Below are positions 1,454 to 58,859 of a stretch of DNA of 64,000 nucleotides, in pieces. The position numbers and the translations under genes are program-made. The stretch comes from Desulfobacterales bacterium. GTDB lineage: Bacteria > Desulfobacterota > Desulfobacteria > Desulfobacterales > SURF-7. Within the stretch, counting starts at the first letter, position 1, and every line of letters begins with the position of its first letter. The stretch is from NCBI GenBank assembly GCA_018693105.1, contig JABHLN010000001.1, positions 4,750-68,749 of the forward strand, read 5' to 3'. A model generated the notes under the pieces. The model made no database searches. It saw only the letters and a list, made by a program, of their open reading frames with translations, and was not told the DNA's origin.

Positions 1454-1499
1454 ATTTCCCTTTTTTATCCTCTGATCTTGTTAACTTTGCCATCGAAGT

Positions 1500-1700
1500 T
1501 TAATCACATGTTCGGCAGGTCTTCTGACTTCCCCGCTCTTATAACTGCCTTCCCATTTCAAAAGTATCAGAATACAAAACAGTGGCTATTAGCGTTATAA
1601 AAGTTCCTTTTCCATATGAAAAAGGCCGGGGTTACAGCGGCGGGCCCGTCCCTGAATTTCACAGGGTTCCCTATTAAGCGAATTCTTTAAACACCGTAAC
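1500..1700 (-). promoter_or_regulatory. Cobalamin (B12) riboswitch
   Basis: The reverse complement contains the conserved core AATAGGGAACCCTGTGAAATTCAGGGACGGGCCCGCCGCTGTAA, then AGCCACTG, GGGAAGGC and the B12 box AGTCAGAAGACCTGCC (1514-1529 on the plus strand). Confidence 0.9.
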
Positions 1701-1755
1701 ATGTCTTGGTTATAAATTAATGAAATGTACCGTATCTGTCAAGACAAGATATATT

Positions 1756-1907
1756 GATGGCTTCGTAAAAAATCCAATATCTGCGTTACACTGCATCCCT
1801 CGTCATTGCGGCGTACGTTAAGCACGCCTCATTCCTCGGGGTTTGCGGCGCCTTGATCTTAAACTTTTTACTTTGCCATCTCGAGTTGACTTTTTACGAC
1901 TTAATCA
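1756..1907 (+). mobile_element. MITE-like element, variant family C (same termini as family A, different GC-rich core)
   Basis: 5' end is GATGGCTTCGTAAAAAATCC. The 3' end GACTTTTTACGACTTAATCA is its inverted counterpart. An internal module CTTAAACTTTTTACTTTGCCATC parallels family A. No clear target-site duplication. Confidence 0.6.
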
Positions 1908-4352: not shown

Positions 4353-4434
4353 TTATACTTTAATAATAACTTGACTTTGCATCAAACCTCAGTAAAACAG
4401 ATATATTGATATTTATTACAAATTCATCAACCTT

Positions 4435-4588
4435 GATGGCGTCGTAAAAAGTCTCCATCTACTGCGTTATAGCGGTTGATCAGAAGTTCAGCATACTACA
4501 TGTATGCCTTCACTCCTGACCAACCACTATGCCTTGTATATGAAGATTTTTACTTAGCCATCAGTTATACTTTTGTACGAGTTCATCA
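4435..4588 (+). mobile_element. MITE-like element, family A, full copy
   Basis: GATGGCGTCGTAAAAAGTCTCCATCTAC ... central imperfect palindrome around CATACTACATGTATGC ... ACTTTTGTACGAGTTCATCA. Flanked by the direct duplication ACCTT (4430-4434 and 4589-4593). Confidence 0.8.
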
Positions 4589-4613
4589 ACCTTATATTAC
4601 CTAATATAATAAA

Positions 4614-5987: not shown

Positions 5988-6012
5988 TATTGTTTTTTTG
6001 ATTATCAGAACT

Positions 6013-6166
6013 TGATAAACTCGTAAAAAAGTATATTCAATGGCTAAGTAAAAATCTTCATTTACAAGGCATAGCAGTTTATCAGGAGTGAAGGCATACA
6101 TGTAGTATGTCGAACTTCTGATCAATCGCTATAACGCTGTAAATGGAGACTTTTTACGACGCCATT
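6013..6166 (-). mobile_element. MITE-like element, family A, full copy
   Basis: Reverse orientation. Flanked by the 6-bp duplication AGAACT (6007-6012 and 6167-6172). The stop codon of the TPR gene (6165-6167) spans the element/duplication junction. Confidence 0.8.
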
Positions 6167-7178
6167 AGAACTTGAAGTTTAGTGAGACTATCAGGCCTAA
6201 ATCATTATTATAGTTTCCAAGACTGATACTTGTACTTTGCTTCAGCCTTTGAATAAATTTTCTGTTCTCATCTCTGTTATACTTATGGGCACTGGTTTTA
6301 GCACCGTAAATATTACCTGAGTAAAATCCCAGTTCAACAAAAGTTATAATGCTTCCAAGGGCATCATTTCCATTATCAAAAGATTCATATGCAGCATAAA
6401 TAAGAGCGCCGTTTAAGAGAAATGCTACGAGTGCATCCCTGTATCGGCCACAATAAGCAAAGCCTGCCCCGGGAATTACTGACAAAGCCGCCGCAAGGTC
6501 AGGGCTTTTCACAGGCATGGCTTCATTTTTATTTTTCCTTACTCTTTCAAGTTCAGCAGAAATTTTTCCAATTCTGTATTTCCCCCGATTTTTTCCACTT
6601 ATCTTTTCAAAATATTCAGAAGCTTTCCCCCACGAATCTGCAGGCCCCTCTTTTTCGAGCCATGATTTATCAAGATATATCCATCCGGTCTTGTAGTATG
6701 CGCCGTCTTTTACATCAATTGCATCATTTAACAGTGCAAGGTTTCGAAGAGTGTTGATAGCAGGGCCGAACCTGTTCATCTTCATGTAGCATTCGCTTAT
6801 CTTAAAAGCAGATTCGATAGCGAGATCAGTTGTCAAATATTTCTCTTGAACAACGCTGAAAGCATTCACAGCTTCCTTATACTGCCTGTTATAATAATAA
6901 GCCATTGCTGTTTTGTATAATACTAATTCGGCTTTTTTATTATCAGGAAAGAAATAAAGGAATCTTTTATATTCATCTATTGCTCTTGAGTATTCCCCGT
7001 CTGAAAAATATTGTTCTGCAAATTCATATTGTTTTTCTGAATCTATCCGGATTGTTTCCGCATGCAACTGTACGACAGATACAAAAAACATTAATAAAAG
7101 CATCAATTGGGAAAAGCGATTTAATACTATTTCTGAGTTAAAAAATTTAGATCTCATTATCATACCGGTTATTTCCAC
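6165..7178 (-). CDS. TPR-repeat protein with signal peptide and C-terminal membrane segments
   Basis: 337 aa. The N-terminal hydrophobic leader ends VVQLHA. TPR-like repeats are present (AEQYFSDGEYSRAIDEYKRFLYFFP, YKTAMAYYYNRQYKEAVNAF). The C-terminal part has hydrophobic helices (LAAALSVIPGAGFAY, ALVAFLLNGALIYAAY). The start may be 7163 or 7157. Confidence 0.65.
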   Translation of the reverse strand: MEITGMIMRSKFFNSEIVLNRFSQLMLLLMFFVSVVQLHAETIRIDSEKQYEFAEQYFSDGEYSRAIDEYKRFLYFFPDNKKAELVLYKTAMAYYYNRQYKEAVNAFSVVQEKYLTTDLAIESAFKISECYMKMNRFGPAINTLRNLALLNDAIDVKDGAYYKTGWIYLDKSWLEKEGPADSWGKASEYFEKISGKNRGKYRIGKISAELERVRKNKNEAMPVKSPDLAAALSVIPGAGFAYCGRYRDALVAFLLNGALIYAAYESFDNGNDALGSIITFVELGFYSGNIYGAKTSAHKYNRDENRKFIQRLKQSTSISLGNYNNDLGLIVSLNFKF

Positions 7179-12385: not shown

Positions 12386-12427
12386 AGAGTATTATTAATT
12401 AAATCATAAAAAAAGTATGTGAGCAGC

Positions 12428-12460
12428 TTAGTGAAAAGTCTCCATTTACTGCGTTATATT
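12428..12460 (+). repeat. Fragment of family A element (5' module)
   Basis: TTAGTGAAAAGTCTCCATTTACTGCGTTATA matches the first module of family A. Lies between gspC and the gspN stop. Confidence 0.5.
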
Positions 12461-12470
12461 GTTTGTTAGT

Positions 12471-13349: not shown

Positions 13350-13384
13350 AACATTAATAATCAGCTAGTTCCGAGTTCAATTAT

Positions 13385-13536
13385 TTATGAACGTGTATAA
13401 AGTAAAACCGATGGCTAAGTAGAAATCTTCATATACAAGGCATAGCTGTTAATCAGGAGTGAAAGCATACATGAGTATGTTGAATTTCTGATTAACAGCT
13501 ATAAAACAATAGGTGGAGAGTTTCTACGACGCCATT
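13385..13536 (-). mobile_element. MITE-like element, family A, full (diverged) copy
   Basis: Reverse orientation. Flanked by the 6-bp duplication AATTAT (13379-13384 and 13537-13542). The gspM stop codon lies inside the right-hand duplication. Confidence 0.75.
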
Positions 13537-13538
13537 AA

Positions 13539-14069
13539 TTATAGTATCATTACGGTTTCTACCTGTAAAACCGCATCAACAGTTCTTTTTAATTCCCCTT
13601 TCCTATATATGGAAAGCCTTTTTATATACACCATCTTCTTTGAGGTTTCTATTTTGTACAGACATGAAACCAGTTGTTCCATATTTATCCCCTCAAGCTT
13701 CATCTCAACAGATGATATCTTGTACTGACCGTCTTTGTTCCCTGAGGTAGAAGGCTTCATATATGTAATCCGGTCTTTAACCCCGGCTTCGCCGGCAAGT
13801 TTATCAAGAAAGGAAAAAAGCCTGAACCCGCTACCTCTTGAAGCAAAATCAAGCCTGGATATATCTGCTTTTTTTTGTATTACCTGATACTCGGATTTCA
13901 TGGCAAGCATCTGCTCAATATCTTTTGTCTTTATTTTTATTGTCCTTCGAAGCATCTTCTTTTTGTCAAGATAAGGTGAAACTATAAAGCTGCTAAAAAC
14001 AAATAAAAATATCACAGCTATTGCCGTGTATAAAGAATATCTCTCTCGTTTACTCAGGTTCAGGGCCAT
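13539..14069 (-). CDS. gspM: Type II secretion protein GspM (PilO-like)
   Basis: 176 aa bitopic protein with an N-terminal TM (YTAIAVIFLFVFSSFIV). Lies directly downstream of gspL. Confidence 0.55.
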   Translation of the reverse strand: MALNLSKRERYSLYTAIAVIFLFVFSSFIVSPYLDKKKMLRRTIKIKTKDIEQMLAMKSEYQVIQKKADISRLDFASRGSGFRLFSFLDKLAGEAGVKDRITYMKPSTSGNKDGQYKISSVEMKLEGINMEQLVSCLYKIETSKKMVYIKRLSIYRKGELKRTVDAVLQVETVMIL

Positions 14070-16840: not shown

Positions 16841-16870
16841 TCATCAGTTATACTTTTTACGAGTTCATCA
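16841..16870 (+). repeat. Fragment of family A element (3' module)
   Basis: TCATCAGTTATACTTTTTACGAGTTCATCA. The gspJ stop codon (16868-16870) lies in its last bases. Confidence 0.55.
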
Positions 16871-19032: not shown

Positions 19033-19510
19033 TATTGCTCCATGCTCGGATATATATCTTTGTTTAATTTTGATGTTTTTGTAAAAAAAATAACTGATGG
19101 CTAAATGTTTCCATTATGGAGGAATTTGCAATACCGTCAGTTTAACATGGTCGGTTAACTATTACTTATAATATAAGAATTGTATGATCAAGCGTAAAAA
19201 AATAAATGAGAAAAATCAGCATTTTAACAATATACGCAAAAACCTGTCGATTTTGGCTATATTTTCCCCTTTTCGCATAAATACAAATTATTATAATTTG
19301 TTATGAAATAAAACCATATAGTTTTAAATCGCATCAATCATCAACATGAAAATAATGGAGCGGCAGGTATCATGATCGGCGAGCCTCAACCCTGATATTG
19401 AAACATCCGGGGGGGGGTAATGTAAGATCAGTTGGTATATTGGAGTTCAGGGGGGCTTTGTTAAAGATATTTTTTATCAAAACGCCCCTGAATGGGTGCT
19501 CAATAGACAC

Positions 19511-22927: not shown

Positions 22928-25045
22928 ATGCAGAAAAAGTATTACAAAAAAAGATCCGCAAGGCATCCTAAAAGAAAGATAATACAGGGTAAAATTAGAC
23001 CAGGTTCAGACCCACTATTAAAAAAGATTTTTCAGTCTATAGGCGTTCCTGAAGAAAAACCGTTCAAACCGGACCCTTTTCAGCTTGAAGCCATCGACGC
23101 TATTGAACGTTCAGACTGTCTTGTTACAGCTCCTACCGGTGCCGGAAAAACATGGATAGCAGAAAAGGCTGTATCACGAATTCTTAGCAAAGAGGGCAAA
23201 GCATGGTATGCAACTCCTTTAAAAGCGCTTACCAACGGTATATATTCACATTTCTGCGAAGTTTTCGGTGCAGGTTATGTGGGTATCCTTACAGGTGACA
23301 GGAAAGAAAATACCGAAGCCCCTGTTATTATAGGAACAACTGAAATTCTGCGAAATCATCTTTATGACGCAATGGAAAAAGGTGAGGATCTTGATGCAGA
23401 CCTCGTGATACTTGACGAAGCCCATTTTCTGGGAGATGAGTCAAGAGGCGTCGTGTGGGAAGAGATAATGATATACCTTCCGGCAAGGATACCGCTTCTT
23501 ATGCTTTCGGCAACCATAGGAAACGCAAACCAGATTGCCGGCTGGCTTGAATCAATACGATCAAAAAAATGCCTTATTGTAAATGAAGAAGATAGACCTG
23601 TTCCACTGCATCACCTTTTTTTCCATCCTAGCGGCACGCTTTTACCCCTTGTCAAAAATAGGGAGCAGAATAAGAAAGCCGTCCTGGATAAGAAAGTATT
23701 ATCATATATTCAGAGTGATAATCCGCCGCTACTATCACCACCTCAAAAACTCCCCCCTATGGGAGACATTATCCGTGTCCTGAGAAAGTTCAAACTTCTG
23801 CCTGCAATCTTTTTTTTAAAATCCCGTATGGATTGTAATAATGCCCTTGAACTATGTACAGGTGAAGGGCTTGCCAATGATCCTGAAAGAAAAGCAAAAC
23901 TGAGTAAAAGAATCGAGGAACTCCACAGCCAAAGCTCCCATCTTTCGGGCCACAAGCAGCTTTGGCATCTTGAACATCTTGCTGTAGGTTCACATCACAG
24001 CGGGCAGCTGCCATCATGGAAGATTGTTGTGGAAACCCTAATGTCCGAGGGTCTTCTTGATGCAGTCTTTGCCACTTCTACTGTTGCCGCAGGGGTGAAC
24101 TTTCCGGCAAGGACGGTTGTAATATTAAACTCGGATCGTTACAACGGGACTGAATTCCTTTCATTAAATCCCACTGAGTTCCACCAGATGACAGGGCGGT
24201 GTGGAAGGAGAGGAAAGGATAAAGTAGGCTTTTCAGTCGTACTCCCTGGCAGGTTCATGGACTTAAGGCTTGTCTCAAAACTTATTGAAGCTCCTCCTTC
24301 ACATATTCACAGCCAGATCAGGATTAATTTTTCCATGGTCCTGAACCTTCTTCTTTCTCATACACCGGGGCAGATAGCTGAAATGCTGGAAAAATCTTTC
24401 GCTACATATCTTATTTCAAAGAAAAGTAATAAAAAGAAAACCTTAAATTTCTTTGATGAAAGCAATAGTTACCTGTGGAGAGATTTCCTCCAGCATCTAA
24501 ATTTTCTTAAAGACAATAACTATGCATCTGAAGACGATATTTTGACCGACGACGGAGTCTGGGCGTCAAAGTTGAGAATCGACCAGCCGCTGATAGTAGC
24601 CGAAGGGTTCAGGCTTGGTCTTTTCCCTGAATCCGACCCCGCTCTTCTTGCCGGAATAATAGCTTCTTTCGTAAATGAAAAGGACTCTAAAGACGAAAAA
24701 CTGAACTATGAGCATATTCCCAAAGAACTTGTTTCGGTTTTTCTTAATATCAAAAAAAGACTTCGGCCGTTTACAAAGAGTATGAGTTCAAAAGGTTTTG
24801 GATTTAAATCATTATACCTAAGACCTGCAGTTACCATACATGCATGGGCATCAGGTATGCCCTGGGAAAAAGTACTTTCAATGTCCGAAATAGCCGAAGG
24901 TGATCTCGCCAGGCTGATCCTGAGGACATCGGACAACCTCATGCATATCCGGAACCTATCGGATGTATTTCCTGAAGCTGCTCGCAACGCAGGATATGCA
25001 ATCGAACTGATAAAAAGAGAACCTGTAATTACCCTGTTCGAATAG
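22928..25045 (+). CDS. Ski2/HelY-like DEAH-box superfamily 2 helicase
   Basis: 705 aa. Motif I TAPTGAGKT, motif II LDEAHFL, SAT, and motif VI QMTGRCGRRG, plus a C-terminal DSHCT-like region. Confidence 0.8.
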   Translation: MQKKYYKKRSARHPKRKIIQGKIRPGSDPLLKKIFQSIGVPEEKPFKPDPFQLEAIDAIERSDCLVTAPTGAGKTWIAEKAVSRILSKEGKAWYATPLKALTNGIYSHFCEVFGAGYVGILTGDRKENTEAPVIIGTTEILRNHLYDAMEKGEDLDADLVILDEAHFLGDESRGVVWEEIMIYLPARIPLLMLSATIGNANQIAGWLESIRSKKCLIVNEEDRPVPLHHLFFHPSGTLLPLVKNREQNKKAVLDKKVLSYIQSDNPPLLSPPQKLPPMGDIIRVLRKFKLLPAIFFLKSRMDCNNALELCTGEGLANDPERKAKLSKRIEELHSQSSHLSGHKQLWHLEHLAVGSHHSGQLPSWKIVVETLMSEGLLDAVFATSTVAAGVNFPARTVVILNSDRYNGTEFLSLNPTEFHQMTGRCGRRGKDKVGFSVVLPGRFMDLRLVSKLIEAPPSHIHSQIRINFSMVLNLLLSHTPGQIAEMLEKSFATYLISKKSNKKKTLNFFDESNSYLWRDFLQHLNFLKDNNYASEDDILTDDGVWASKLRIDQPLIVAEGFRLGLFPESDPALLAGIIASFVNEKDSKDEKLNYEHIPKELVSVFLNIKKRLRPFTKSMSSKGFGFKSLYLRPAVTIHAWASGMPWEKVLSMSEIAEGDLARLILRTSDNLMHIRNLSDVFPEAARNAGYAIELIKREPVITLFE

Positions 25046-25046
25046 T

Positions 25047-25126
25047 GATGGTGTTGTAAAAAGTCTCCATCTATTGTGTTATAAAGTTTGCCCAGACGTT
25101 CTATTTGCTACATGTATGCCTTCACG
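25047..25126 (+). repeat. Truncated family A element (5' half only)
   Basis: GATGGTGTTGTAAAAAGTCTCCATCTATTGTGTTATA ... CTACATGTATGCCTTCAC, after which similarity stops. It begins 1 nt after the helicase stop and contains the stop codon (25122-25124) of the convergent gene. Confidence 0.65.
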
Positions 25127-26093
25127 CTCTGCAATTAATACTTTCAATTGCCTCTCCGGCTGCTTCTTTAACCATCACACTGTATTCACCTGATATAATC
25201 TTTTCCAGTTCAGATATATTACTATAGTTGCCGGATTCTCCTATCAGGTAAAGAATATCTCCTTTCACCTGATCATCCATTTCAGGAAACTTTTCCAATA
25301 AAGGATTAATGGTTCCGGCAGCAAGGGTCTTGTCTTTCTCTATTACCTCTTCCATTACAACCATAGCGCCAAGTCTGACAGGCCACTTTTCATGCATAAG
25401 AAGTTCATAAAACGATTGAAAGATAGATCTGCTTTTTAGCATCATTTCAGCAACAAGCGAAGCATTCCCGTCTTTAATAATCCCTTCCAGTGAGGAGGCT
25501 CCAAGTTGTGAAGGATCACGATCATTCATTGCATCTACAAGTTCATGAACCGGAACCGATCCTGTCCATCGGAAATCATCATCAAGAAGTAGTGTGGGTG
25601 CTGACATGATCCTGAATGTTTCCGTCTCTTTCGGAAAAAGAGTTCCATCTATTATGGAAATATGCATGTACCCGCATTCAATTACCAGGGGTATAATCTG
25701 TTGTACTACAACAGGACAGTGCGGACAGTATTGGGCAATAAATAACTTGCAACGGGCTGGTACATCAACACTTCTTAATTTTTCCAAAACCGAATCAGGT
25801 AATTTCACAACCCCTGATGCAACCTGTTTCAGGGCATCAAGGAAAATATCAATTTCAGTACCCACCGGAATCGCATGGAATCTTATTCTCTCATGAATTT
25901 GAATTGCAGAAGGTTGATCATCGTCACTTTTCTTTATTGTAACATCAATCTTCGGTACAAGGCTTGCCAGTTTCTCACCAAAAGCTTTAAACTCAACCTT
26001 TAAACCATCATCGCCCATGTAAATATTGATTTTTAAATTCTTTTCCAGGGATTTTCCAAACTGAATAAACTTCTTTTCTTCCTTTTGTTGCAT
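25122..26093 (-). CDS. Thioredoxin-fold (CPHC) protein with C-terminal HEAT-like repeats
   Basis: 323 aa. Has a C-x-x-C motif (YCPHCP) in a glutaredoxin/thioredoxin-like context and a helical repeat C-terminus. Last gene of the mqn-containing same-strand block. Confidence 0.5.
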   Translation of the reverse strand: MQQKEEKKFIQFGKSLEKNLKINIYMGDDGLKVEFKAFGEKLASLVPKIDVTIKKSDDDQPSAIQIHERIRFHAIPVGTEIDIFLDALKQVASGVVKLPDSVLEKLRSVDVPARCKLFIAQYCPHCPVVVQQIIPLVIECGYMHISIIDGTLFPKETETFRIMSAPTLLLDDDFRWTGSVPVHELVDAMNDRDPSQLGASSLEGIIKDGNASLVAEMMLKSRSIFQSFYELLMHEKWPVRLGAMVVMEEVIEKDKTLAAGTINPLLEKFPEMDDQVKGDILYLIGESGNYSNISELEKIISGEYSVMVKEAAGEAIESINCRA

Positions 26094-35380: not shown

Positions 35381-35547
35381 AATCAAATTAACCTTTTTTG
35401 TTAAATAAATGATTATAAAAAAACCGGACTTCAGTGTCAAGGATGGCATTTTTATCTGTAATAAAATCCTGAATTAATAGCCTCATATTCATATCAATGA
35501 TCATATCCATTGTTTTTTTATCTAAATTTATGCAATATATAATTTGT

Positions 35548-35700
35548 GATGGCGTCGTAAAAAGTCTCCATCTACTGCGTTATAGCATTTGGCCAGATGC
35601 TTGACATACTGCATGTATGCCTTCACACCTGGCCAAAAACTATGCCTTGGATATGAAGATTTTTACTTAGCCATCAGTTATATATTTTACGAGTTCATCA
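35548..35700 (+). mobile_element. MITE-like element, family A, full copy
   Basis: Flanked by the 6-bp duplication ATTTGT (35542-35547 and 35701-35706). Lies 81 bp upstream of the aor start. Confidence 0.8.
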
Positions 35701-35781
35701 ATTTGTGGTGGATATGCAGATTTATACTTAACCTTTTCCGATTAATCAAAAACGAAGAAACAGAAACGAATAAAGGGAAAA

Positions 35782-37557: not shown

Positions 37558-37587
37558 TGCATCAGCTTTTTAAAACGCCGTCAAGAT

Positions 37588-37740
37588 TGATGAACTCGTA
37601 AAAAGTATAACCGATGGCTAAGTAAAAATCTTCATATACAAGGCATAGTGGTTGATCAGGAGTGAAGGCATACATGTAGTATGTCGAACTTCTGATCAAC
37701 CGCTATAACGCCGTAGATGGAGACTTTTTACGACGCCATC
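37588..37740 (-). mobile_element. MITE-like element, family A, full copy (best-preserved)
   Basis: TGATGAACTCGTAAAAAGTATAACCGATGGCTAAGTAAAAATCTTCATATAC ... GTAGATGGAGACTTTTTACGACGCCATC. Flanked by AAGAT (37583-37587 and 37741-37745). Confidence 0.85.
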
Positions 37741-37767
37741 AAGATTAAAGGAAAGGATAAAACAGGA

Positions 37768-38895: not shown

Positions 38896-38954
38896 TGGCG
38901 TTGTATATGAAGATTTTTACTTAGCCATAGGTAATACTTTTTACGAGTTTATCA
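38894..38954 (+). repeat. Internally deleted family A element (termini retained, core lost)
   Basis: GATGGCGTTGTA is joined directly to TATGAAGATTTTTACTTAGCCATAGGTAATACTTTTTACGAGTTTATCA. It overlaps the TGA stop of the aminopeptidase gene. Confidence 0.65.
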
Positions 38955-39025: not shown

Positions 39026-39961
39026 ATGGTTTTAAAAACTATGAATTCAATGGATATTCAAACAGATAATCACCCGGATAATCATATTGACAGGTATATG
39101 AATTATCTGCTGGTTGAAAAAGGTTTGTCTGAAAAAACTATAGAATCATACAATAGCGATATAACAAGGTATATCGATTTTCTTGAAGATAACAAAATTA
39201 ATAAGCTTTCCGAAGCAGATACGACTGTGATTTTAAAGCATCTTATAGACCTCAGAAAATCAGGTCTCGGGGCAAGATCAAGGGCAAGACATCTTGTTAC
39301 ATTAAGAGGTTTTTACAAGTTTCTTGTCAATGAAAAAATTATCAGTCATGATCCGACAATTATTGTAGACCTACCAAAAAGCGGCCTTAAACTTCCTGAA
39401 GTTCTATCTGTAAGTGAAATTAACAGTTTTCTGAACACCCCCGATACAAATAAACCTTCAGGAATTCGGGACACTGCTATGCTCGAGCTTCTCTATGCTG
39501 CAGGACTGAGAGTTTCAGAACTTATTAATATTAAGCTTCAGAGTGTTAATACCGAAGCAGGATTTGTAAGGGTATACGGGAAAGGATCAAAGGAAAGAAT
39601 TATCCCCATTGGTCAGTATGCTAAAGAAAAAATTGATGAATATGTAGCTTCATCAAGGCAGATTCTCTTAAAAAATCATAAAAGCCAGTATCTTTTTGTG
39701 GCAAGAGCAGGTAAACCCATGACACGCCAGGGCTTCTGGAAGCTTGTAAAAAGATACGCCCTTATTTCAGGCACAAAAAAAAAGATTACACCTCATACTC
39801 TTCGACACTCCTTTGCAACCCACCTCCTTGAAGGAGGGGCAGACCTCAGAGCAGTCCAGATAATGCTTGGTCATGTTGATATTTCCACAACGCAGATATA
39901 TACTCATATAGCCCACGAGCATCTCCGGAAAATTCATGAACAATATCATCCAAGGGGATAA
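39026..39961 (+). CDS. xerD: Tyrosine site-specific recombinase XerD
   Basis: 311 aa. Catalytic region HTLRHSFATHLLEGGADLRAVQIMLGHVDISTTQIYTH and the XerD-like C-terminus HEQYHPRG. Confidence 0.75.
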   Translation: MVLKTMNSMDIQTDNHPDNHIDRYMNYLLVEKGLSEKTIESYNSDITRYIDFLEDNKINKLSEADTTVILKHLIDLRKSGLGARSRARHLVTLRGFYKFLVNEKIISHDPTIIVDLPKSGLKLPEVLSVSEINSFLNTPDTNKPSGIRDTAMLELLYAAGLRVSELINIKLQSVNTEAGFVRVYGKGSKERIIPIGQYAKEKIDEYVASSRQILLKNHKSQYLFVARAGKPMTRQGFWKLVKRYALISGTKKKITPHTLRHSFATHLLEGGADLRAVQIMLGHVDISTTQIYTHIAHEHLRKIHEQYHPRG

Positions 39962-40291: not shown

Positions 40292-41953
40292 ATGAGTTCA
40301 TCATATAAGGAAAAAAAAATAACGGGCTGGTGGACATCAAACGGAACACAGCCTGAAACCGGAAGCAACTCTATAAAAGAAGCTATTTCAAGGGTTACTC
40401 ACCCGGTTTATATGGTTGATATGGACGGACATATGGGAGTCGGACATGATGGTATTGTTGTTATGGGTAAAGACGCCCCCGATATGTCTGAAGGTTACCC
40501 CCTTACAGCCTGGTCTCCGCCTCTTCATCCTGAAAACCTTGGTGATCCTGTTTTCAAAAAAAGGCACAATATTCGTTATCCTTACATTGCCGGTGCAATG
40601 GCGAACGGAATTACATCTACAGATATAGTTGAGGAGATGGGTTGTGCAGGAATGGCCGGTTTTTTTGGTGCAGGAGGCCTTACACTTGATAAAATCGAGG
40701 CAGCAATCGACAGACTTGAAGAGCGTCTCAAAGATATTACCTATGGTTTCAACCTCATACATAGCCCCAATGATCCTGATCATGAGAATGCAGTTGTTCA
40801 ACTTTATTTGCGGAGGGGAGTCAGACTGGTAAGCGCCGCGGCATATATGAACCTTACTCTTCCAATCGTATATTACCGCGTAAAGGGAATTCACCGTGAT
40901 ACCGACGGAAATATCATTTGCCCGAATAAGATAATTGCAAAGGTATCAAGGGTTGAGGTTGCAAGAAAATTCTTTTCTCCACCACCGGAAAAATTTCTCG
41001 GGCAGCTTTATGAAAGAAAATTGATTACCGAAGAAGAGGCCGAACTTGCACGGCATATTCCCATGGCAGACGACCTTACAGCTGAGGCAGATTCAGGTGG
41101 CCACACCGATAACCGCCCTGCCCTTGCACTATTGCCAAATATTATCGCCCTGCGTGATGAAATGGTAAGACAGTTTGATTACAAAGACCCTGTTTGTGTG
41201 GGTCTTGGAGGTGGTATTGCCACGCCGGAATCAACAGCGGCTGCTTTTGCAATGGGCGCTGCATATGTTTTGACAGGTTCTGTTAACCAATCCTGTGTGG
41301 AATCAGGAACATCGGAATCTGTAAGACAGATGCTTGCAGATGCCGGACAGGCTGATGTGTCCATGGCACCTGCTGCAGACATGTTTGAAATGGGAGTAAA
41401 AGTTCAGGTTCTTAAACGGGGAACTCTTTTCCCGGTGAGGGCTGCAAAACTTTACGAAATTTATTCAAGGTATAATAGTCTTGAAGAAATCCCGGAGAAT
41501 GAAACAAAAAATATTGAAAAAAACTTTTTTAAGTGCGGCTTACAAGAGGAATGGCACCGAACGAAAAGTTTTTTCCAGCAACGTGATCCAAGACAGATAA
41601 AACTTGCAGAATCAAAGCCGAAGCACAAAATGGCCCTTATCTTCAGGTCGTATCTAGGCCGTTCTTCATTCTGGGCTATATCAGGTGATTCGGATAGAAA
41701 AATCGATTTTCAGATCTGGTGCGGGCCGGCCATAGGCGCCTTTAACGAATGGGTAAGAGGAACATTTCTTGAAAAGCCTGAAAACAGAAAAGTCGTCACT
41801 GTAGCGATGAATCTTCTTTATGGTGCATCCATAGTAACACGTATAAACTGGCTTCGAAATCAGGGTATTGTTCTTCCAACTGATGCAGGAAGTTTTTCAC
41901 CAATGGAACTATCAGAAATTCAAAAGAATCTCGAAAATAAGGTAGCTAATTGA
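40292..41953 (+). CDS. pfaD: PfaD-family trans-acting enoyl reductase (FMN, nitronate monooxygenase-like)
   Basis: 553 aa. The family-typical N-terminus is followed by a TIM-barrel ER region (YPYIAGAMANGITS, EADSGGHTD). 4-nt TTGA overlap with the downstream megasynthase gene. Confidence 0.8.
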   Translation: MSSSYKEKKITGWWTSNGTQPETGSNSIKEAISRVTHPVYMVDMDGHMGVGHDGIVVMGKDAPDMSEGYPLTAWSPPLHPENLGDPVFKKRHNIRYPYIAGAMANGITSTDIVEEMGCAGMAGFFGAGGLTLDKIEAAIDRLEERLKDITYGFNLIHSPNDPDHENAVVQLYLRRGVRLVSAAAYMNLTLPIVYYRVKGIHRDTDGNIICPNKIIAKVSRVEVARKFFSPPPEKFLGQLYERKLITEEEAELARHIPMADDLTAEADSGGHTDNRPALALLPNIIALRDEMVRQFDYKDPVCVGLGGGIATPESTAAAFAMGAAYVLTGSVNQSCVESGTSESVRQMLADAGQADVSMAPAADMFEMGVKVQVLKRGTLFPVRAAKLYEIYSRYNSLEEIPENETKNIEKNFFKCGLQEEWHRTKSFFQQRDPRQIKLAESKPKHKMALIFRSYLGRSSFWAISGDSDRKIDFQIWCGPAIGAFNEWVRGTFLEKPENRKVVTVAMNLLYGASIVTRINWLRNQGIVLPTDAGSFSPMELSEIQKNLENKVAN

Positions 41954-44900
41954 AACATGACAAGAAAAAAATAAAACCGGATATTCCGGTTGCGATAATT
42001 GGTATCGGCTGTCTTTTTCCAAAGGCAGCAGGAGTTAAAGAATACTGGCGGCTGCTCTACCACGGAGAAGATGCAATAACTGAGGTTCCGGAAACACACT
42101 GGTCCATAAAAGACTATTTCCATAGTGATCCGAAAACACCTGATCATACCTATTGCAAACGTGGTGGTTTTCTTTCACCGGTATCTTATGATCCATCCGA
42201 ATTCGGAATTCCTCCTAATCTGATGGAAGCCACTGACACATCACAGCTTCTCGGACTTATTGTCGCAAAAATGGCTCTTGAGGACGCAGGTTATAAAAAA
42301 GAAGGGGCTTTTGACCGTGAGAAAACAAGTGTGATTCTCGGAGTAACGGGCACACAGGAGCTTGTCATTCCTCTTGGAGCAAGGCTTGGTCATCCAATAT
42401 GGCGAAGAGCGCTTGAAGATTCAGGGGCAACTCCTGAAATGACAGAGGAGGTTATCAGCAGAATTTCCGAAGCCTATGTCCCATGGCAGGAAAACTCTTT
42501 TCCGGGCCTTCTCGGAAATGTTATCCCCGGAAGAATCAGTAATCGTTTTAATCTGGGTGGCACAAACACGGGGGTAGATGCAGCATGCGCAAGCTCCTTA
42601 AGTGCGATCAACCTTGCTGTACTTGAACTGATATCCGGCCGGAACGACATGGTAATAACCGGCGGTGTGGATACTCTTAACGACATATTTATGCACATGT
42701 GCTTCTCCAAGACATCTGTCCTTTCACATACGGGAGACGCAAAACCATTTTCACAAGATGCTGACGGAACAGTACTTGGAGAAGGCATTGGAATGGTTGT
42801 TTTAAAACGCCTTGAAGATGCTGTAAAAGACGATGACAGAATTTATGCAGTAATAAAATCAATAGGTACTTCAAGCGATGGTAAGTCGGGAAGTATTTAT
42901 GCGCCAAATTCAACTGGACAGAAAAAAGCCCTGCAGATGGCATATAGAAACGCTGATGTATCTCCAGCAACTATAGAACTTCTTGAGGCCCATGGTACAG
43001 GAACAAGGGTGGGAGATGCGGTTGAATTTCAGGCATTAAAAGAGGTTTATTCTGATGCAGGAAGCCGTCCCGGAAACTGCGCCCTTGGTTCAGTTAAGTC
43101 AAACATAGGTCACTGCAAAGCTTCAGCCGGAGTTGCCGGTCTTATTAAAGCCGCGCTTTCACTGCATCACAAGGTGCTTCCACCCACATTGAAGGTGGGA
43201 AATCCTGATCCAAAACTATCAATCGAAAAATCTCCTTTTTATCTTATAAAAAAATCACGGCCATGGTTTTCCTTATACGACCATCCACGCAGAAGCGGTA
43301 TCAGTGCCTTCGGGTTCGGAGGAAGTAATTTCCATACAATCCTGGAAGAATATGAGCCAAGCAAAAACAAAATCTCATGGAACGCAACTATTGAAATAGT
43401 TGCATTGTCAGCATCAACAAAAAACAAACTTAAGGAAAGATTAGCTTCCTTTTCAGAACAGATAGAAAAGATATCAGCAAAAGAAAATTTCTCATTCAGT
43501 GAAATTTCATTTCCGGCATCAAAAACCAGGGGAAGCTTCTCCAGCAATGACAAGTATCGTCTCCTGATGGTTTTGGAACGTTCAGATAAAAAATCTTCGC
43601 ATAGTGACTCTGACGACAATAAAAATTACGACTTTATAAATGTTTTCAAAAAATCTCTGCATGCATTAGAGTCGGACAACCCTGACGATTTGAAAAACAT
43701 TGAGAACGTTTTCTATGGTGAATCTGAAAAGCCTGGACAGGTCGCTTTTATCTTCCCGGGACAGGGCAGTCAGTATGTAGATATGGGAAAAGACCTTATC
43801 TGCACATTTCCTGAAGCACAAAGCGCCCTTGAAGATGCAAATCGCAATTTCTTATCAGAAAACAAAGGTACACTCGGTAATTTCATTTACCCTCATAATA
43901 CAAATGATAATACTCCCGGTAATACAAAAGGCAAAAAAAGACTTGAAGACGCGTTGAGGAGTACAGATATTGCACAACCTTCAATAGGAGCAATAAGTCT
44001 TTCAATGCTCAATGTTCTCCAAAGCTTCGGGATAAGACCTGATGCCGTATGCGGACACAGCTTCGGTGAACTCACAGCACTCTGCTGTGCAGGCCGAATA
44101 AATGTTGAAACATTTTATTCCCTGTCAACTTCAAGGGGAAGATTCATGGCTGCAACCGGAGGAGCTCAGGGCTCCATGCTTGCTGTAAAAGCACCGCTTG
44201 ATGAAATTGATAATATTATCGAGGAAAATAATATTGATGTCATCCTTGCAAATAGAAACAGTTATGAGCAGGGCATTCTTTCAGGTTCAAAAGATGCAGT
44301 TTCCGAAGCTGAAAAAATATGCAGGCAGAAAGGATTTAGAACCACCCCGCTTCCTGTTGCAGCAGCATTTCACAGCCGACTGGTTGAGGATGCCGCAAAG
44401 CCCTTTAAAAAATTCCTTAAAAGTATTGATATTATTTCATCGGATATTCCTGTACTTTCCAATACAACAGGGAAACCATATCCTGATGATCAGGATGAGA
44501 CAAAAAAGATTCTCGGAAACCAGTTTCTTAAACCGGTTGATTTTGTAAGTGAAATTGAAAACCTTTATGAAACCGGAGTGCACACTTTTGTCGAAATAGG
44601 TCCGAAAACTGTTCTAACAGGCCTTGTAAAATCAATATTAAAAGGGCGGGATTTTACCGCTGTAGCAATGGATGGTTCAGCAGGGCGGCGTTTTGGTATA
44701 TCTGATCTTGCAAAGGTTCTCTGCAATCTTGCATCTCTTGGTTATGGAGTAGAAATTGACAGATGGGAGGAAACACCACCGGAACCTGAAAAACAGAATA
44801 TGAGCATACCTATTTCAGGCGCAAACTACTGGCTGCCTCCTAAACCAAAGCCAAAGAAGGGACCTCAACCGGTTATTGAATCAAAACCGGAAACTGAAAA

Positions 44901-47900
44901 GACATATACACAGAAAATCCTAAAAAGTAATTATTCAAACAAACCAGTTATTGATAAAACCAGACTAATGAGTGATGAAACGAAAATAAAAGATGACTAT
45001 ATTTCAAACGCGTTAAATGTTGTTCAGGAAAGTATTAGATCCATGCAGGCGCTTCAGAAACAAACCGCAGAAGCCCATTCAAAATTTCTGGAGACCCAAA
45101 CAGAGGCCGCAAAGACTTTACAGGTTATGATGGGACAAACCCAACGCATGGCTGAAGCAACTATCGGTATAGGATCATCCGAAGTTACACAGAAAGACTC
45201 CAGGGAAACAACATTTGAAACACAGTATGATAATAGACCCGATGAAAATATTAATAACAGGGACCTTGATCCACAGCCGTATGTTGCTAATAAGCCGGCA
45301 TTACCTGACCGTTCAATTATTCCTGAAAGTAACGGGATAGATGCACATGATTCAGGACAGTCAACATCTATATCAGCTGACATTGAAAAGAACATGCTGG
45401 ACATAGTTGCACATCTGACAGGATATCCTGTGGAAATGCTCGGCATGGAAATGGATATTGAAGCAGACCTTGGGATTGATTCAATCAAACGTGTTGAAAT
45501 ACTTTCAACTCTTGAAGAAAAAATGCCGGATCTTCCTGCTGTTTCACCTGAAGCTATGGGCGAGCTTAAAACTCTGGGACAGATTGTGGATTATCTGTCA
45601 CAGGGAGCAGTAAACGATAAGAGCAGTGAAGGTAAGACAATTCGCTCCGATGGCCCGGGCAACACTGAGATAGAAACCAACCTGCTTGATATAGTAAGCA
45701 ACCTCACAGGCTACCCGGTAGAAATGCTCGATACAAACATGGATATTGAAGCCGATCTTGGGATCGATTCAATCAAACGTGTTGAAATACTTTCGACGCT
45801 GGAAGAGAAAATGCCGAATCTTCCTGCTGTTTCACCTGAAGCCATGGGTGAGCTTAAAACTCTAGGACAGATAATCGAATACTTATTAGCGGGGGCTGAG
45901 AAGGACACACTCACAACCGAAGAACATGCACATAAAAATATAACAGCTTCCGGTTCAAGTTCAGCCAAAATAGAAAAAGAGCTATTGGATATTGTTGCAC
46001 AGCTCACCGGCTACCCTGTTGAAATGTTAGGCTCGGATATGGATATCGAAGCTGACCTCGGTATCGATTCAATTAAACGTGTTGAAATACTTTCAACACT
46101 CGAGGAAAAAATGCCTGACCTTCCTGCTGTTTCACCTGAAGCCATGGGTGAACTCAAAACACTTGGGCAAATTGTGGATTATCTATCAGGTGGAGGTGAA
46201 GAAAAAACTAAACCTGCACCTCATGACCTTGATTCTTCTAAAATAGTTGAGACTGTTTCGCCGAATGTTGAAGAAAAGGACCGGGAACCAAAAACAACTC
46301 TGGAACGTCAAACAATATCGATTGTTGAAACACCTTTTTCTCAACGAGTAAAAATAAATATTCCTGAAAGTAAAACAATATATATAACAAAAGAAAGTTC
46401 CGGCCTTTCAGAAGCAATAGCTGCCGAGCTTGACTCGAGAAATATCAGTTCGGATATTATTACTTCAAAACAGATTAAAAAAATCCTTAAGGGTGATAAG
46501 GTTCTTAAAAACGTTGGGGGTCTTATCATAATTGCAGGCCAGGATAATGATGATGATATCTGGAATAAAAAAATACAGGCATTCTTAAAAAATTCTTTTG
46601 TTCTTGCAAAACATTGTGCGCCTGGTCTTATCAAATCCTCGGAATCGGAAAACGGCGGCGCTGTTTTTGCTACTATAACCCGCCTTGACGGGTGTTTCGG
46701 CTTCAAAGGTAAAGGCGTAAAAAATCCGCTGCAGGGAGGGCTTGCAGGTCTTTCCAAAACGGCCTCAATTGAATGGGAAAATGTGGCATGTCGTGCGGTT
46801 GATATTGATCCGTCATGGCGGGATAACAAAGAGATAGCAGATGCAATAGTCTCAGAACTTTTGAATGATACCACTACTATTGAGATCGGCCTTACTCCTG
46901 AGAGACGATATACACTTAAGCTCAAAAAGTCGGGAGCACCTGACGGAAAAACCGTTTTAATAGAAAACGATGTTGTTGTTATCACCGGAGGAGCTAGAGG
47001 CGTAACAGCAGCCTGTGCACAGGCCCTTGCAGAACAAATCAAACCTGTCATCGTGCTCCTTGGAAGGTCTCCGGAACCTAAACCAGAGCCTGAATGGTTA
47101 AAAGGCCTTACTATTGAGTCACATATTAAAAAAGGAATTCTTGAAAACGAATTTAAAGACAAGAAAACAACGCCAAAAAAAATAGAGAAATCATATCAAA
47201 GGCATTATGCAAACCGTGAAATTTCTAAAACTCTTGAAGAACTAAAAGAAAAAGGGGTAGAAGCATTTTACTATTCTGCAGATGTTCGTGATCAGGAAGT
47301 AATGAACAAAACATTTGATAAAATAAGGGAAAAACACGGGCCTGTAAAAGCATTAATTCATGGTGCAGGAATTCTTGAGGATAAATTCATAACGGACAAA
47401 TCTCTGAAGCAATTTGAAAGGGTTTATGACACTAAAACAAAAGGATTGCGGGTTCTTCTTGAAGCAACAAAGGATGACAGTCTTAAATATATTGTTTTGT
47501 TTTCATCAGTAAGCGCAAGGCAGGGTAATAAAGGTCAGGTAGACTATGCTATGGCAAACGAAGTATTAAATAAGGTTGCACATTATAAGTCTGTTTTATT
47601 GCCTGAATGTAAAATAATTTCGATCAACTGGGGGCCATGGGATGGTGGTATGGTATCTCCATTATTAAAAAATGAATTCAGGCGAAACAATATTGAGCTG
47701 ATCCCTGTTGATACAGGTGCAAGATACATGGTTAATGAAATGAAAAACAGCAGGGAAAACCCTGTGGAAATTATCATCGGTGCAACAATGCATCCTGATA
47801 ATAAAGACGAAAACATTGAACCTGTCATAAAAAAGATAAAACGATCATTACCTGAAAGCAAAAAAATGGCACTTTCATTTAATAGGGATGTTAATATTGA

Positions 47901-48714
47901 CACCTTCCCTATTCTTGAGTCCCATATATTGAACGGTGAACCAGTAGTACCTTTTGCGCTTATGGCAGAATGGTTCGGACATGGTGCCCTACATGGTAAT
48001 CCGGGTTTACGCCTACATGGAATAGATGATATGCGCCTGCTTAAAGGCATCCGGCTAAACGGCCAAAGCAGGCACATTCAGATTCTAGCCGGGAAAACCA
48101 GAAAAAACGGTTTATTTTTTGAGGTGGATGTGGAACTGAGAAACGGTGATGGTGCTGCCATGATTCATTCCAAAGCAAAAGCGATACTCACAGAAAAACT
48201 TTCTTCACCCCCTGAATTTAGTCACGCTAATAACATGTCATTAAAAGATTATCCAAGAAGCATGGATGAAGCATATGAAAAAATTCTTTTCCACGGTTCG
48301 CAGCTAAAGGGCATCAAAGAAGTTATAGGTTATTCCTCCAAAGGCATGACAGCCAGATTATCTTCGGCGCCAGATCCTGAAAAATGGATAACTGATCCTT
48401 TAAGAAGCGGTTGGATAGGTGACCCGCTTGTTCTTGACTCTGCTTATCAATTGGCAATCCTTTACTGCTTTGAGGAAACAGGTGTGGTCTCTCTACCTAG
48501 TTACAGTGCAAGCTACAGGCAATACAGTCAGTCATTTCCTCCAGACGGTGTTACAGCAGTGCTTGAAGTGACGGAGCTGACCGATCATAAAATGACAGGG
48601 GATTTCACATTCCTTGATTCAGACAATACGGTTGTAGCAACCATATCTGGTTATGAAGCGGTAATGGACATATCCCTGAACAATGCGTTCAAGCCTGAAG
48701 GGATAAAGGTATAG
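41950..48714 (+). CDS. pfaA: PfaA-like iterative type I synthase: KS-AT-ACPx3-KR-DH
   Basis: 2254 aa. KS: DAACASS, EAHGTGT, NIGH. AT: GQGSQ, GHSFGE, AAFHS. Three ACPs with LGIDSIKRVEILS. KR: TGGARGVT and a YAMAN region. PKS-type DH: H-x3-G-x4-P (HILNGEPVVP). TTG start. Confidence 0.9.
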   Translation: MKHDKKKIKPDIPVAIIGIGCLFPKAAGVKEYWRLLYHGEDAITEVPETHWSIKDYFHSDPKTPDHTYCKRGGFLSPVSYDPSEFGIPPNLMEATDTSQLLGLIVAKMALEDAGYKKEGAFDREKTSVILGVTGTQELVIPLGARLGHPIWRRALEDSGATPEMTEEVISRISEAYVPWQENSFPGLLGNVIPGRISNRFNLGGTNTGVDAACASSLSAINLAVLELISGRNDMVITGGVDTLNDIFMHMCFSKTSVLSHTGDAKPFSQDADGTVLGEGIGMVVLKRLEDAVKDDDRIYAVIKSIGTSSDGKSGSIYAPNSTGQKKALQMAYRNADVSPATIELLEAHGTGTRVGDAVEFQALKEVYSDAGSRPGNCALGSVKSNIGHCKASAGVAGLIKAALSLHHKVLPPTLKVGNPDPKLSIEKSPFYLIKKSRPWFSLYDHPRRSGISAFGFGGSNFHTILEEYEPSKNKISWNATIEIVALSASTKNKLKERLASFSEQIEKISAKENFSFSEISFPASKTRGSFSSNDKYRLLMVLERSDKKSSHSDSDDNKNYDFINVFKKSLHALESDNPDDLKNIENVFYGESEKPGQVAFIFPGQGSQYVDMGKDLICTFPEAQSALEDANRNFLSENKGTLGNFIYPHNTNDNTPGNTKGKKRLEDALRSTDIAQPSIGAISLSMLNVLQSFGIRPDAVCGHSFGELTALCCAGRINVETFYSLSTSRGRFMAATGGAQGSMLAVKAPLDEIDNIIEENNIDVILANRNSYEQGILSGSKDAVSEAEKICRQKGFRTTPLPVAAAFHSRLVEDAAKPFKKFLKSIDIISSDIPVLSNTTGKPYPDDQDETKKILGNQFLKPVDFVSEIENLYETGVHTFVEIGPKTVLTGLVKSILKGRDFTAVAMDGSAGRRFGISDLAKVLCNLASLGYGVEIDRWEETPPEPEKQNMSIPISGANYWLPPKPKPKKGPQPVIESKPETEKTYTQKILKSNYSNKPVIDKTRLMSDETKIKDDYISNALNVVQESIRSMQALQKQTAEAHSKFLETQTEAAKTLQVMMGQTQRMAEATIGIGSSEVTQKDSRETTFETQYDNRPDENINNRDLDPQPYVANKPALPDRSIIPESNGIDAHDSGQSTSISADIEKNMLDIVAHLTGYPVEMLGMEMDIEADLGIDSIKRVEILSTLEEKMPDLPAVSPEAMGELKTLGQIVDYLSQGAVNDKSSEGKTIRSDGPGNTEIETNLLDIVSNLTGYPVEMLDTNMDIEADLGIDSIKRVEILSTLEEKMPNLPAVSPEAMGELKTLGQIIEYLLAGAEKDTLTTEEHAHKNITASGSSSAKIEKELLDIVAQLTGYPVEMLGSDMDIEADLGIDSIKRVEILSTLEEKMPDLPAVSPEAMGELKTLGQIVDYLSGGGEEKTKPAPHDLDSSKIVETVSPNVEEKDREPKTTLERQTISIVETPFSQRVKINIPESKTIYITKESSGLSEAIAAELDSRNISSDIITSKQIKKILKGDKVLKNVGGLIIIAGQDNDDDIWNKKIQAFLKNSFVLAKHCAPGLIKSSESENGGAVFATITRLDGCFGFKGKGVKNPLQGGLAGLSKTASIEWENVACRAVDIDPSWRDNKEIADAIVSELLNDTTTIEIGLTPERRYTLKLKKSGAPDGKTVLIENDVVVITGGARGVTAACAQALAEQIKPVIVLLGRSPEPKPEPEWLKGLTIESHIKKGILENEFKDKKTTPKKIEKSYQRHYANREISKTLEELKEKGVEAFYYSADVRDQEVMNKTFDKIREKHGPVKALIHGAGILEDKFITDKSLKQFERVYDTKTKGLRVLLEATKDDSLKYIVLFSSVSARQGNKGQVDYAMANEVLNKVAHYKSVLLPECKIISINWGPWDGGMVSPLLKNEFRRNNIELIPVDTGARYMVNEMKNSRENPVEIIIGATMHPDNKDENIEPVIKKIKRSLPESKKMALSFNRDVNIDTFPILESHILNGEPVVPFALMAEWFGHGALHGNPGLRLHGIDDMRLLKGIRLNGQSRHIQILAGKTRKNGLFFEVDVELRNGDGAAMIHSKAKAILTEKLSSPPEFSHANNMSLKDYPRSMDEAYEKILFHGSQLKGIKEVIGYSSKGMTARLSSAPDPEKWITDPLRSGWIGDPLVLDSAYQLAILYCFEETGVVSLPSYSASYRQYSQSFPPDGVTAVLEVTELTDHKMTGDFTFLDSDNTVVATISGYEAVMDISLNNAFKPEGIKV
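45380..46195 (+). repeat. Three tandem ACP-coding repeats (period about 290-300 bp) inside pfaA
   Basis: Units at about 45380-45606, 45667-45895 and 45969-46195. Protein units are nearly identical. DNA differs mainly at synonymous sites, with identical stretches such as CTTCCTGCTGTTTCACCTGAAGC. Confidence 0.9.
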
Positions 48715-50621: not shown

Positions 50622-50672
50622 AATATTACCTCCCTATTTAAAAATGATGCACTCGTAAAAAGTTAAATTAAT

Positions 50673-51751: not shown

Positions 51752-51812
51752 TGGTAGTTTATCAGGAGTGAGGACATATATGAAGTATATCAAACTTCCG
51801 ATAAACCACTCT
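51752..51812. repeat. Family A-like core hairpin only
   Basis: GGTAGTTTATCAGGAGTGAGGACATATATGAAGTATATCAAACTTCCGATAAACCACT parallels the family A core (for example 6079-6130). Confidence 0.5.
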
Positions 51813-51857
51813 AATCCGGTCATACCGCTAACACAGAATTAAGCATGCTATAAAACC

Positions 51858-58490: not shown

Positions 58491-58859
58491 CCTCAGTATT
58501 TAATTGATTTTTTTTCAGTATCTACTATGAGGTAATAGGTGTCAAGATAACACATGACAAAAATTTACGAAAAACAGACATGGGTTGTATGTATCTATCT
58601 GAAAATTAGTGTGATGCAATAGACGGAGACTTTTTAATACATCTTCAAAAGCTCTGAAGCTTGTATTAAAAATTTAATCATGATATTTTCGATTCCGGCA
58701 AATATCAATATATACCATGATGCGTCAATACCGCTACCTTATGGTTCTATGAAAATCAAGTACCCAGGAGACGCTCAAATTCAAGTTAGATTTACTTGAT
58801 CTGGTTGAACGCAAGGAAAAAATAAAAAGTCCACTCTTTTAAAATTATAAAGGTTACTC

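Follow-up and report, generated by a model that had tools for sequence, protein, structure and literature searches.

A 154-bp MITE family with 4-5-bp target duplications and an orientation bias at gene ends in uncultured Desulfobacterales

Correia elements, the MITEs of Neisseria, are about 100-150 bp long, abundant, and intergenic; they have terminal inverted repeats and form long hairpins when co-transcribed. They duplicate a TA, and their inverted repeats are 26 bp long with no tandem subterminal modules; we know of no identified cognate transposase for them. Other small palindromic intergenic repeats, of about 107-155 bp, include bcr1 of the Bacillus cereus group, ERIC/IRU, and RUP, and some of these (e.g., bcr1) are accompanied by short AT-rich duplications. 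Among insertion sequences, the IS21 family generates duplications of 4-8 bp. In IS3 and IS481 elements, each end typically carries a single inverted repeat without tandem subterminal repeats, and insertions of these elements beside sequences resembling their own ends are known. Their termini are TG...CA (often TGA...TCA), and their duplications are 3-5 bp long (ISfinder family tables). Each end of IS5376 is about 55 bp long, is built from a pair of 23-bp direct repeats, and finishes with CA (PMC10122671); the target duplication of IS5376 is 5 bp (PMC11208146). In vitro, IstA requires both repeats at each end (PMC10122671), and IS21 is reported to be without strong target specificity (PMC11208146).

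The element described here was found in a 64-kb stretch of DNA from a Desulfobacterales bacterium (referred to as the window, i.e., the whole stretch that was analysed). It is similar to Correia elements in size, abundance, intergenic location, and hairpin formation. However, its ends are unrelated to theirs in sequence, it carries tandem modules, and its duplication is 4-5 bp. It also differs from bcr1, ERIC/IRU, and RUP, to which its sequence, hosts, and ends are unrelated, and none of these gave a match in the Rfam or plasmid searches. The element is one of a MITE superfamily that occurs across uncultured Desulfobacterales and other Desulfobacterota and is documented in genomes of very different base composition. 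The preferred reading, to which a probability of about 0.85 is assigned, is a non-autonomous MITE moved by a DDE transposase acting in trans. A literature search with sequence strings returned no earlier description of the element, and a search for MITE with Desulfo* returned general surveys only.

The element reads 5'-TGATGG...TCATCA-3', spans 154 bp with TG...CA termini, and is composed of the following parts, numbered in its own orientation:

Element 1-29: L1 module, TGATGGCGTCGTAAAAAGTCTCCATCTAC
Element 30-103: core, an imperfect palindrome with a conserved apex (CATAC...GTATG)
Element 104-129: R2 module, internal, reverse complement GATGGCTAAGTAAAAATCTTCATAT
Element 130-154: R1 module, terminal, reverse complement TGATGAACTCGTAAAAAGTATAACC

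The left end consists of one copy of a module of roughly 25 bp, L1 (TGATGGCGTCGTAAAAAGTCTCCATC), and R1 and R2 are tandem direct repeats with a spacing of 24 bp. An earlier note on this DNA had described three modules of the form GATG-N3-TCGTAAAAAGT; L1 and R1 match this form exactly, but R2 is degenerate (GATGGCTAAGTAAAAATC). The terminal inverted repeats that it had also proposed are borne out, with TGATGGCGTCGTAAAAAGT and the reverse complement of TGATGAACTCGTAAAAAGT identical at 16 of 19 positions, and the inverted ends carry TGATGNNNTCGTAAAAAGT. Stop codons interrupt all six frames of the consensus, which therefore has no coding capacity.

The conservation of each module was measured in a set of copies anchored on another module, avoiding circularity. 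R2 is nearly invariant in the set anchored on L1, while in the R2-anchored set the conservation is 96% for L1, 85% for R1, and 84-88% for the core. The cleaved R1 end is thus less conserved than the internal R2, an odd outcome if transposition alone constrains the sequence. Subfamilies with quite different, even G+C-rich, cores share the ends and the L1-core-R2-R1 layout.

Deletion derivatives of about 50-70 bp also exist, some of them with flanking duplications. Internal deletions of ~70 bp recur (L217 82-137, L146 1070-1126, and L198 5864-5915; L numbers denote collected loci) and fuse GTCGTA of L1 (GATGGC in L198) straight to T(A/C)TGAAG in R2; the derivatives in L217 and L146 keep the flanking duplications ATATT and ACTATT, respectively. 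Every module harbors a mini-ORF of three codons that overlaps the terminal TGA (UGAUG): ATGGCGTCGTAA, ATGAACTCGTAA, and ATGGCTAAGTAA. Examples lie at window positions 37741-37730 (-) and 37589-37600 (+). The mini-ORF probably arises incidentally from the binding motif, because a TGACGG subfamily (L015, L026) is without it.

Six full copies and at least five fragments are present in the 64 kb of the window, making up roughly 2-3% of its sequence:

37588..37741 (-): focal full copy, 154 bp, 5' end at 37741; nhmmer E 5e-54
37741-37713, 37712-37639, 37638-37613, and 37612-37588 (-): L1, core, R2, and R1 of the focal copy, in element orientation
37584..37587 (no strand): target-site duplication AGAT of the focal copy, R1 side
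37742..37745 (no strand): target-site duplication AGAT of the focal copy, L1 side
4434..4588 (+): full copy with divergent genes on both sides; alignment and profile
6013..6167 (-): full copy; alignment and profile
13385..13537 (-): full copy; alignment and profile
35547..35700 (+): full copy between divergent UbiD-like and aldehyde ferredoxin oxidoreductase (AOR) genes; alignment and profile
1755..1907 (+): sixth full-length copy, of a diverged subfamily; profile E 7e-7
25046..25127 (+): left-half fragment, profile positions 1-81; E 3e-16
38898..38954 (+): right-end fragment with R2 and R1, profile positions 97-153; E 5e-12
51752..51820 (-): core fragment, profile positions 27-95; E 4e-10
12427..12465 (+): short L1-side fragment, profile positions 6-44; E 2e-4
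16842..16870 (+): solo R1 terminal module, profile positions 125-153; E 1.5e-3

The five full and five truncated copies first claimed for the window are all present. The full copies of this family (family A) can be aligned in full; the columns of the window alignment have a mean identity of 85%, and the pairwise identity is 77-96% (mean 86%). An nhmmer profile built from them recovers each of the five with E values of 5e-54 to 3e-45 and the truncated copies with E values of 3e-16 to 1.5e-3. Of the shorter traces also proposed, those at 58576-58637 (E 0.05) and 19079-19105 (E 0.4) are marginal, that at 27323 is undetected by the profile, and that near 50644 is a module match only, at 50647, with up to 3 mismatches. 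The element is one base longer than first described, as it includes the T before GATGG, and the focal copy occupies 37588-37741. The diverged copy at 1755..1907 keeps the L1-core-R2-R1 plan, and its kin are copies in the GC-rich genomes L029 and L030.

Each of the five family-A copies is flanked by a short duplication. That of the focal copy is bordered by TCA (37581-37583) and TAA (37746-37748), as in the target consensus discussed below. The 4434..4588 copy is flanked by ACCT (4430-4433, 4589-4592), with a degenerate R1-like end 4 bp further left, at 4411-4429. The remaining three have 5-bp duplications: AGTTC (6168-6172, 6008-6012) and ATAAT (13538-13542, 13380-13384), both in element orientation, for the copies at 6013..6167 and 13385..13537, and ATTTG (35542-35546, 35701-35705) for the copy at 35547. 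The stop codon of gene 6165..7178(-) is the terminal TAA of the 6013..6167 copy, a variant of TGA (6167-6165, minus strand), and the duplication of the 13385..13537 copy contains the stop codon of gene 13539..14069(-). The fragment 25046..25127 begins 0-2 nt past the TAG that ends gene 22928..25045.

When all called genes of the window were annotated with Pfam, the outcome was housekeeping functions only and no transposase, as first reported. The gene content includes type II secretion, futalosine menaquinone synthesis, AOR, and HGD-D dehydratases, as well as a polyketide-synthase-like protein of 2254 aa (41950-48714, +) with KS-AT-PP-KR domains and internal repeats ~84% identical around 45377-46160. 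A cobalamin riboswitch (Rfam RF00174, 84 bits) at 1498-1713 (-) lies upstream of ExbB/ExbD/TonB genes on the minus strand, and 42 bp separate it from the diverged copy at 1755-1907. The fragment 38898..38954 has as neighbors an M24 peptidase gene and the sole recombinase gene of the window, which encodes a XerC/D-like tyrosine recombinase and lies directly downstream of it (39026-39961, +). This gene is probably a housekeeping Xer unrelated to the element, because the duplications argue against a tyrosine-recombinase mechanism. Public models of the M24 peptidase (window 37717-37767; L063-L067) differ by 17 codons (392 aa versus 375 aa), and the longer one has its start within the L1 module. 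The 392-aa model is likely an annotation artefact arising from the repeat.

The T preceding GATGG is found in 127 of the 130 listed copies, so the left boundary is ambiguous when judged from sequence alone. It is settled by a nested insertion. The copy L243:187-331 interrupts a member of a second, unrelated repeat family (family B), of which eight uninterrupted members read ..TTG ATAT TAAAAGC.., while L243 reads ..TTG ATAT[TGATGAAC...CGCCATCA]ATAT TAAAAGC... Comparison with these eight empty references therefore places the ends at TG...CA and shows that 4 bp were duplicated. Family B is about 200 bp long, contains ...GACAAGCACAACATTTCTATAATTCGTTGATATTAAAAGCATAATTTTC..., and occurs in related MAGs and metagenomes, with the following members:

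L002 228-441: family B member
L147 3531-3733: family B member
L169 7321-7523: family B member
L131 65-266: family B member
L243, flanks of the nested copy: family B member

The same boundaries account best for the insertion sites as a whole. With the TGATG...CATCA model, an exact duplication is found at 76 of the 130 listed sites, 61 of them with 4 bp and 15 with 5 bp (80% and 20% of the exact duplications), while a random-pairing control that retains the flank composition predicts ~4.3 sites with an exact repeat of at least 4 bp. The models GATG...CATCA and GATG...CATC explain fewer sites (71 with 5-6 bp and 64 with 6-7 bp, respectively) and are contradicted by the empty site in L243. Moreover, the left T is present at six sites where a base other than T follows the right-hand duplication, and the terminal A is present at seven sites where a base other than A precedes the left duplication. 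Because they persist at these sites, both terminal bases belong to the element. The flanking repeats of 5-7 bp listed in the earlier note are literally in the sequence, but the true duplication is 4-5 bp; the extra matching base is due to the target preference and the element's own terminal base. Its central claim, that the element transposes, is upheld by the duplications at sites beyond the window and the empty site in L243. A perfect duplication is retained at only 58% of the listed sites across all genomes.

The target is a 10-bp palindrome, 5'-TnA|AnnT|TRA-3', of the type TCAANNTTGA, and resembles two abutted element ends (..TCA, TGA..). At the 61 sites with a 4-bp duplication, the logo is T(70%)-n-A(92%) | A(66%)-n-n-T(84%) | T(92%)-R(87%)-A(56%), and the triplets beside the duplication are TCA, TAA, or TTA on the left and TAA, TGA, or TAG on the right. 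Elements also lie 4-5 bp from the ends of other elements, tail-to-tail in L057, head-to-tail in L030, and at 4411-4429 in the window. These insertions beside existing ends are consistent with a target that mimics the element ends. Since the element begins with TGA and the target ends with TRA, insertion at a stop codon regenerates an in-frame stop.

The element thus inserts through a staggered cut at the palindromic target, with a duplication of 4 bp and sometimes 5 bp. The L1, R1, and R2 modules are the predicted binding sites of a transposase supplied in trans by a putative autonomous element elsewhere. Three features suggest that this enzyme is a DDE (RNase H-fold) transposase: the TG...CA termini, the short duplication of 4-5 bp, and the pair of direct repeats in tandem at one end. 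In the architecture of the ends, the closest match is the IS21 type (IstA with the IstB ATPase), and the enzyme may be of this type specifically, although this narrower assignment is doubtful; IS3- or IS481-like enzymes are candidate alternatives on similar grounds.

An autonomous partner was sought in the window, in MAG loci totalling about 430 kb, in metagenome loci totalling about 570 kb, and among IMG/VR matches. Inverted module pairs 0.6-6 kb apart were sought at all loci, and the intervening ORFs were assessed by inspection or with Pfam/NCBIfam. No autonomous element with the same ends was found in the window and about 1.2 Mb of flanking loci. The ORFs between modules encode TypA, VWA, CheA, EF-P, OmpA, a histidine kinase, an amidase, a RadA-like protein, ABC transporter proteins, and two unannotated proteins, none of which are transposases. 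The right-end-only fragments are all truncations or internal deletions, and the proteins that recur near copies are enoyl-CoA hydratases and sigma-54 activators. A tblastn search of the collected DNA with an IstB sequence, which is a weak test, gave no match. ISDol1 generates 6-7-bp duplications, and the corrected length of 4-5 bp makes this lead less attractive.

The element was said to fold into a long hairpin, and it does so on both strands, with folding z-scores of -7.6 and -10.8 and none of 200 shuffles folding as well. In the helix at alignment columns 53-63/99-109, both sides change in seven of nine pairs with pairing kept; one pair, for example, is G-C in 19 copies and U-A in 17. The covariation score of this central stem exceeds those of all 500 shuffles and all slid controls. 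In 35 of 37 copies, the strand running from R1 to L1 has the more stable fold, by ~11 kcal/mol; the copies are related and hence do not represent 35 independent events.

The copies are distributed unevenly with respect to gene ends. At 22 sites, in 22 different genes, an ORF of 100 codons or more terminates 0-9 nt from the L1 end, whereas only one such ORF terminates this close to the R1 end (binomial p about 6e-6). At 10-60 nt, the corresponding numbers are 17 and 16. In nine genes, including 6165..7178(-) of the window, the first three bases of the element are themselves the stop codon. The 30-nt flank has a G+C content of 38.0% on the L1 side versus 32.7% on the R1 side (p=3e-5). The overall orientation is balanced: at gene 3' ends, 17 copies are forward and 17 reverse, and at 5' ends the ratio is 17:15. 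The palindromic target alone predicts no orientation preference, and the L1-side bias is thus unexplained by it.

The element could instead serve chiefly as a functional RNA or in cis regulation, for example as a hairpin in 3' UTRs, a terminator, or a stabilizer of mRNA, with its spread being secondary to that function. The compensatory changes in seven of nine central-helix pairs, the covariation score above 500 shuffles, the better folding of one strand by ~11 kcal/mol in 35 of 37 copies, and the preference of stops for the L1 end (22 genes versus 1), nine of which use the element's TGA, would all suit such a role. However, the copies are related, such that common descent, and not selection, may account for the asymmetry and for part of the covariation, and the duplications and the empty site show that the copies arrived by transposition. 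The Rfam comparison that had been proposed returns no family, either at gathering thresholds or at E<=10. A simple promoter and terminator scan of the element gives no promoter and 0 terminator-like sites, that is, no stem followed by a U-tract, although the scan cannot represent very long imperfect stems and a U5 run lies ~8 nt past the stem. Copies also occur within divergent promoter regions, and the balanced orientation at 3' ends (17:17) and 5' ends (17:15) likewise speaks against this reading. Accordingly, the suggested role in termination or mRNA stability has no direct support, with no canonical terminator and no Rfam match, and a primarily RNA-based identity is improbable. An RNA-level effect on the subset of copies adjacent to stop codons is possible because of their orientation bias.

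Two further explanations concern how the copies multiplied. A REP/RAYT repeat or an IS200/IS605 palindrome-associated element, moved as single-stranded DNA by a Y1 HUH transposase, would share the long hairpin, the intergenic location, and the high copy number, and the asymmetry in folding between the strands would suit a single-strand mechanism. Such elements insert without duplication, however, in contrast to the exact 4-5 bp at 76 of 130 listed sites and the empty site; the element ends are true inverted repeats, TG...CA, and no HUH gene occurs in the window, making this origin very improbable. Still less credence can be given to a non-mobile repeat that multiplied by recombination or duplication, or to an integron attC-like site, with flanking repeats that match by chance in AT-rich DNA. 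The AT-rich palindromic target does raise the number of chance matches, and a rearrangement breakpoint coincides with the copy in L066. Nevertheless, composition-keeping random pairing yields ~4 exact repeats against the 76 observed, the flanks of the 130 listed sites, from many genomes, are unrelated to one another, eight empty references exist for the nested insertion, and attC R'/R'' core sites are absent. This reading is refuted by the empty site and the random-pairing control.

Within the preferred reading of a mobilized MITE, the bias at stop codons may indicate that the transposition machinery, or the element, discerns the gene-facing side of the target, with the host stop replaced by the element's own terminal TGA in ~9% of copies; this is offered as a tentative and rather unlikely proposal. 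The cause could be an orientation-sensing target-capture step. Alternatively, it could be selection on the co-transcribed hairpin, such that only the weaker-folding strand would be tolerated in 3' UTRs. If true, the element would represent a MITE whose interaction with gene ends is intrinsic and depends on orientation, moved horizontally among Desulfobacterota of 38-65% GC. A stop-regenerating palindromic target combined with a one-sided bias poses a testable question on how transposons choose, and survive at, gene ends.

The wider distribution was assessed with a genome scan (one genome per species, a 23-mer of the left module), which gave at least 61 loci, and a metagenome scan anchored on the internal right module, which gave at least 116 further loci. 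The combined set from MAGs and metagenomes comprises at least 173 full copies and at least 130 unique insertion sites. Among the genome matches listed, almost all are from MAGs labelled Desulfobacterales, Desulfobacteraceae, or 'Deltaproteobacteria', and a few are labelled Anaeroferrophillacea, Syntrophaceae, or Anaerolinea, the last possibly by mis-binning. The element-bearing loci among these matches have a G+C content of 38-65%. Among the copy-rich MAGs are JAGGTJ01 (AUK045), JAZFSW01 (BS2bin.18), CALNYM01, and CAXXLK01. In IMG/VR, two variant MITE sites (L062; L115/L116) were recovered along with chance matches, and the plasmid collection searched gave no match to the element. The claim that copies are confined to intergenic DNA holds for nearly all of them; in only 7 of 102 reconstructed empty sites is a frame open across the junction.

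Other MAGs, with 51-54% G+C, harbor copies whose identity to a window copy reaches 93%. For a flanking housekeeping protein, the nearest relative other than itself found in the database shares only 64% identity at the protein level. From this difference, the family has either spread horizontally or is under strong constraint. Horizontal spread is likewise implied by the range of 38-65% GC among the genomes in which copies with up to 93% identity occur. In a recent census, 97-98% of MITE clusters were confined to a single genus (PMC11602168), beside which the breadth of this element across genomes is somewhat unusual. In the window's own species, the same copies are carried by 9-16 contigs, from several samples and three NCBI MAGs, that are 99.8-100% identical to the window. 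Assemblies of this species include GCA_018676775.1, GCA_018653345.1, and GCA_018648885.1, and proteins with exact matches in NCBI are labelled as from 'Desulfobacterales bacterium' and 'Desulfobacteraceae bacterium' MAGs. No presence/absence polymorphism among strains was seen in these contigs, and the copies in this species appear to be old and fixed rather than currently active.

The repeat also bears on the assembly and annotation of these genomes. In L066 (NCBI MAG contig JABHEB010000193.1, positions 1-1101), colinearity with the window begins exactly where the 35547 copy has its left end. Upstream of this breakpoint lies a different gene (RNase_H_2 domain), and the copy there is without a matching duplication; either copies have recombined, or the assembly is chimeric at the repeat. 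Many MAG contigs end inside the element, which breaks assemblies, and rearrangements or chimeric contigs such as L066 are possible. Several database gene models begin or finish within copies, and recognition of the element prevents such false gene calls. Thus, knowledge of the element can improve both the assembly and the annotation of Desulfobacterales MAGs.

Among insertion sequences, IS3 and IS481 share with the element the TG...CA termini, the short duplication, and end-adjacent insertions. In contrast to them, the element has tandem subterminal repeats, and no IS of this kind with the element's ends was found among the loci searched. To our knowledge, no stop-codon-side orientation bias of the kind seen here has been described for Correia elements. 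The likeness to IS21 lies in the architecture of the ends. IS5376/IS21 and the element both have TG...CA termini, the repeat spacing of 24 bp counted in the printed TIRs of IS5376 (PMC10122671 Supplementary Table 1) is that of R1 and R2, and the duplications are short in both, at 5 bp for IS5376 (PMC11208146) and 4-5 bp for the element. However, the module sequences share no similarity with the repeats of IS5376, and the left end of the element has one clear module, with at most a degenerate second repeat (10/19 by eye). The target of the element is strongly specific and palindromic, whereas the specificity of IS21 is reported to be weak, and no partner encoding istA/istB occurs among the loci searched. 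Taken with these comparisons, the element is an ordinary MITE, of which the orientation bias at gene ends is the unexpected feature.
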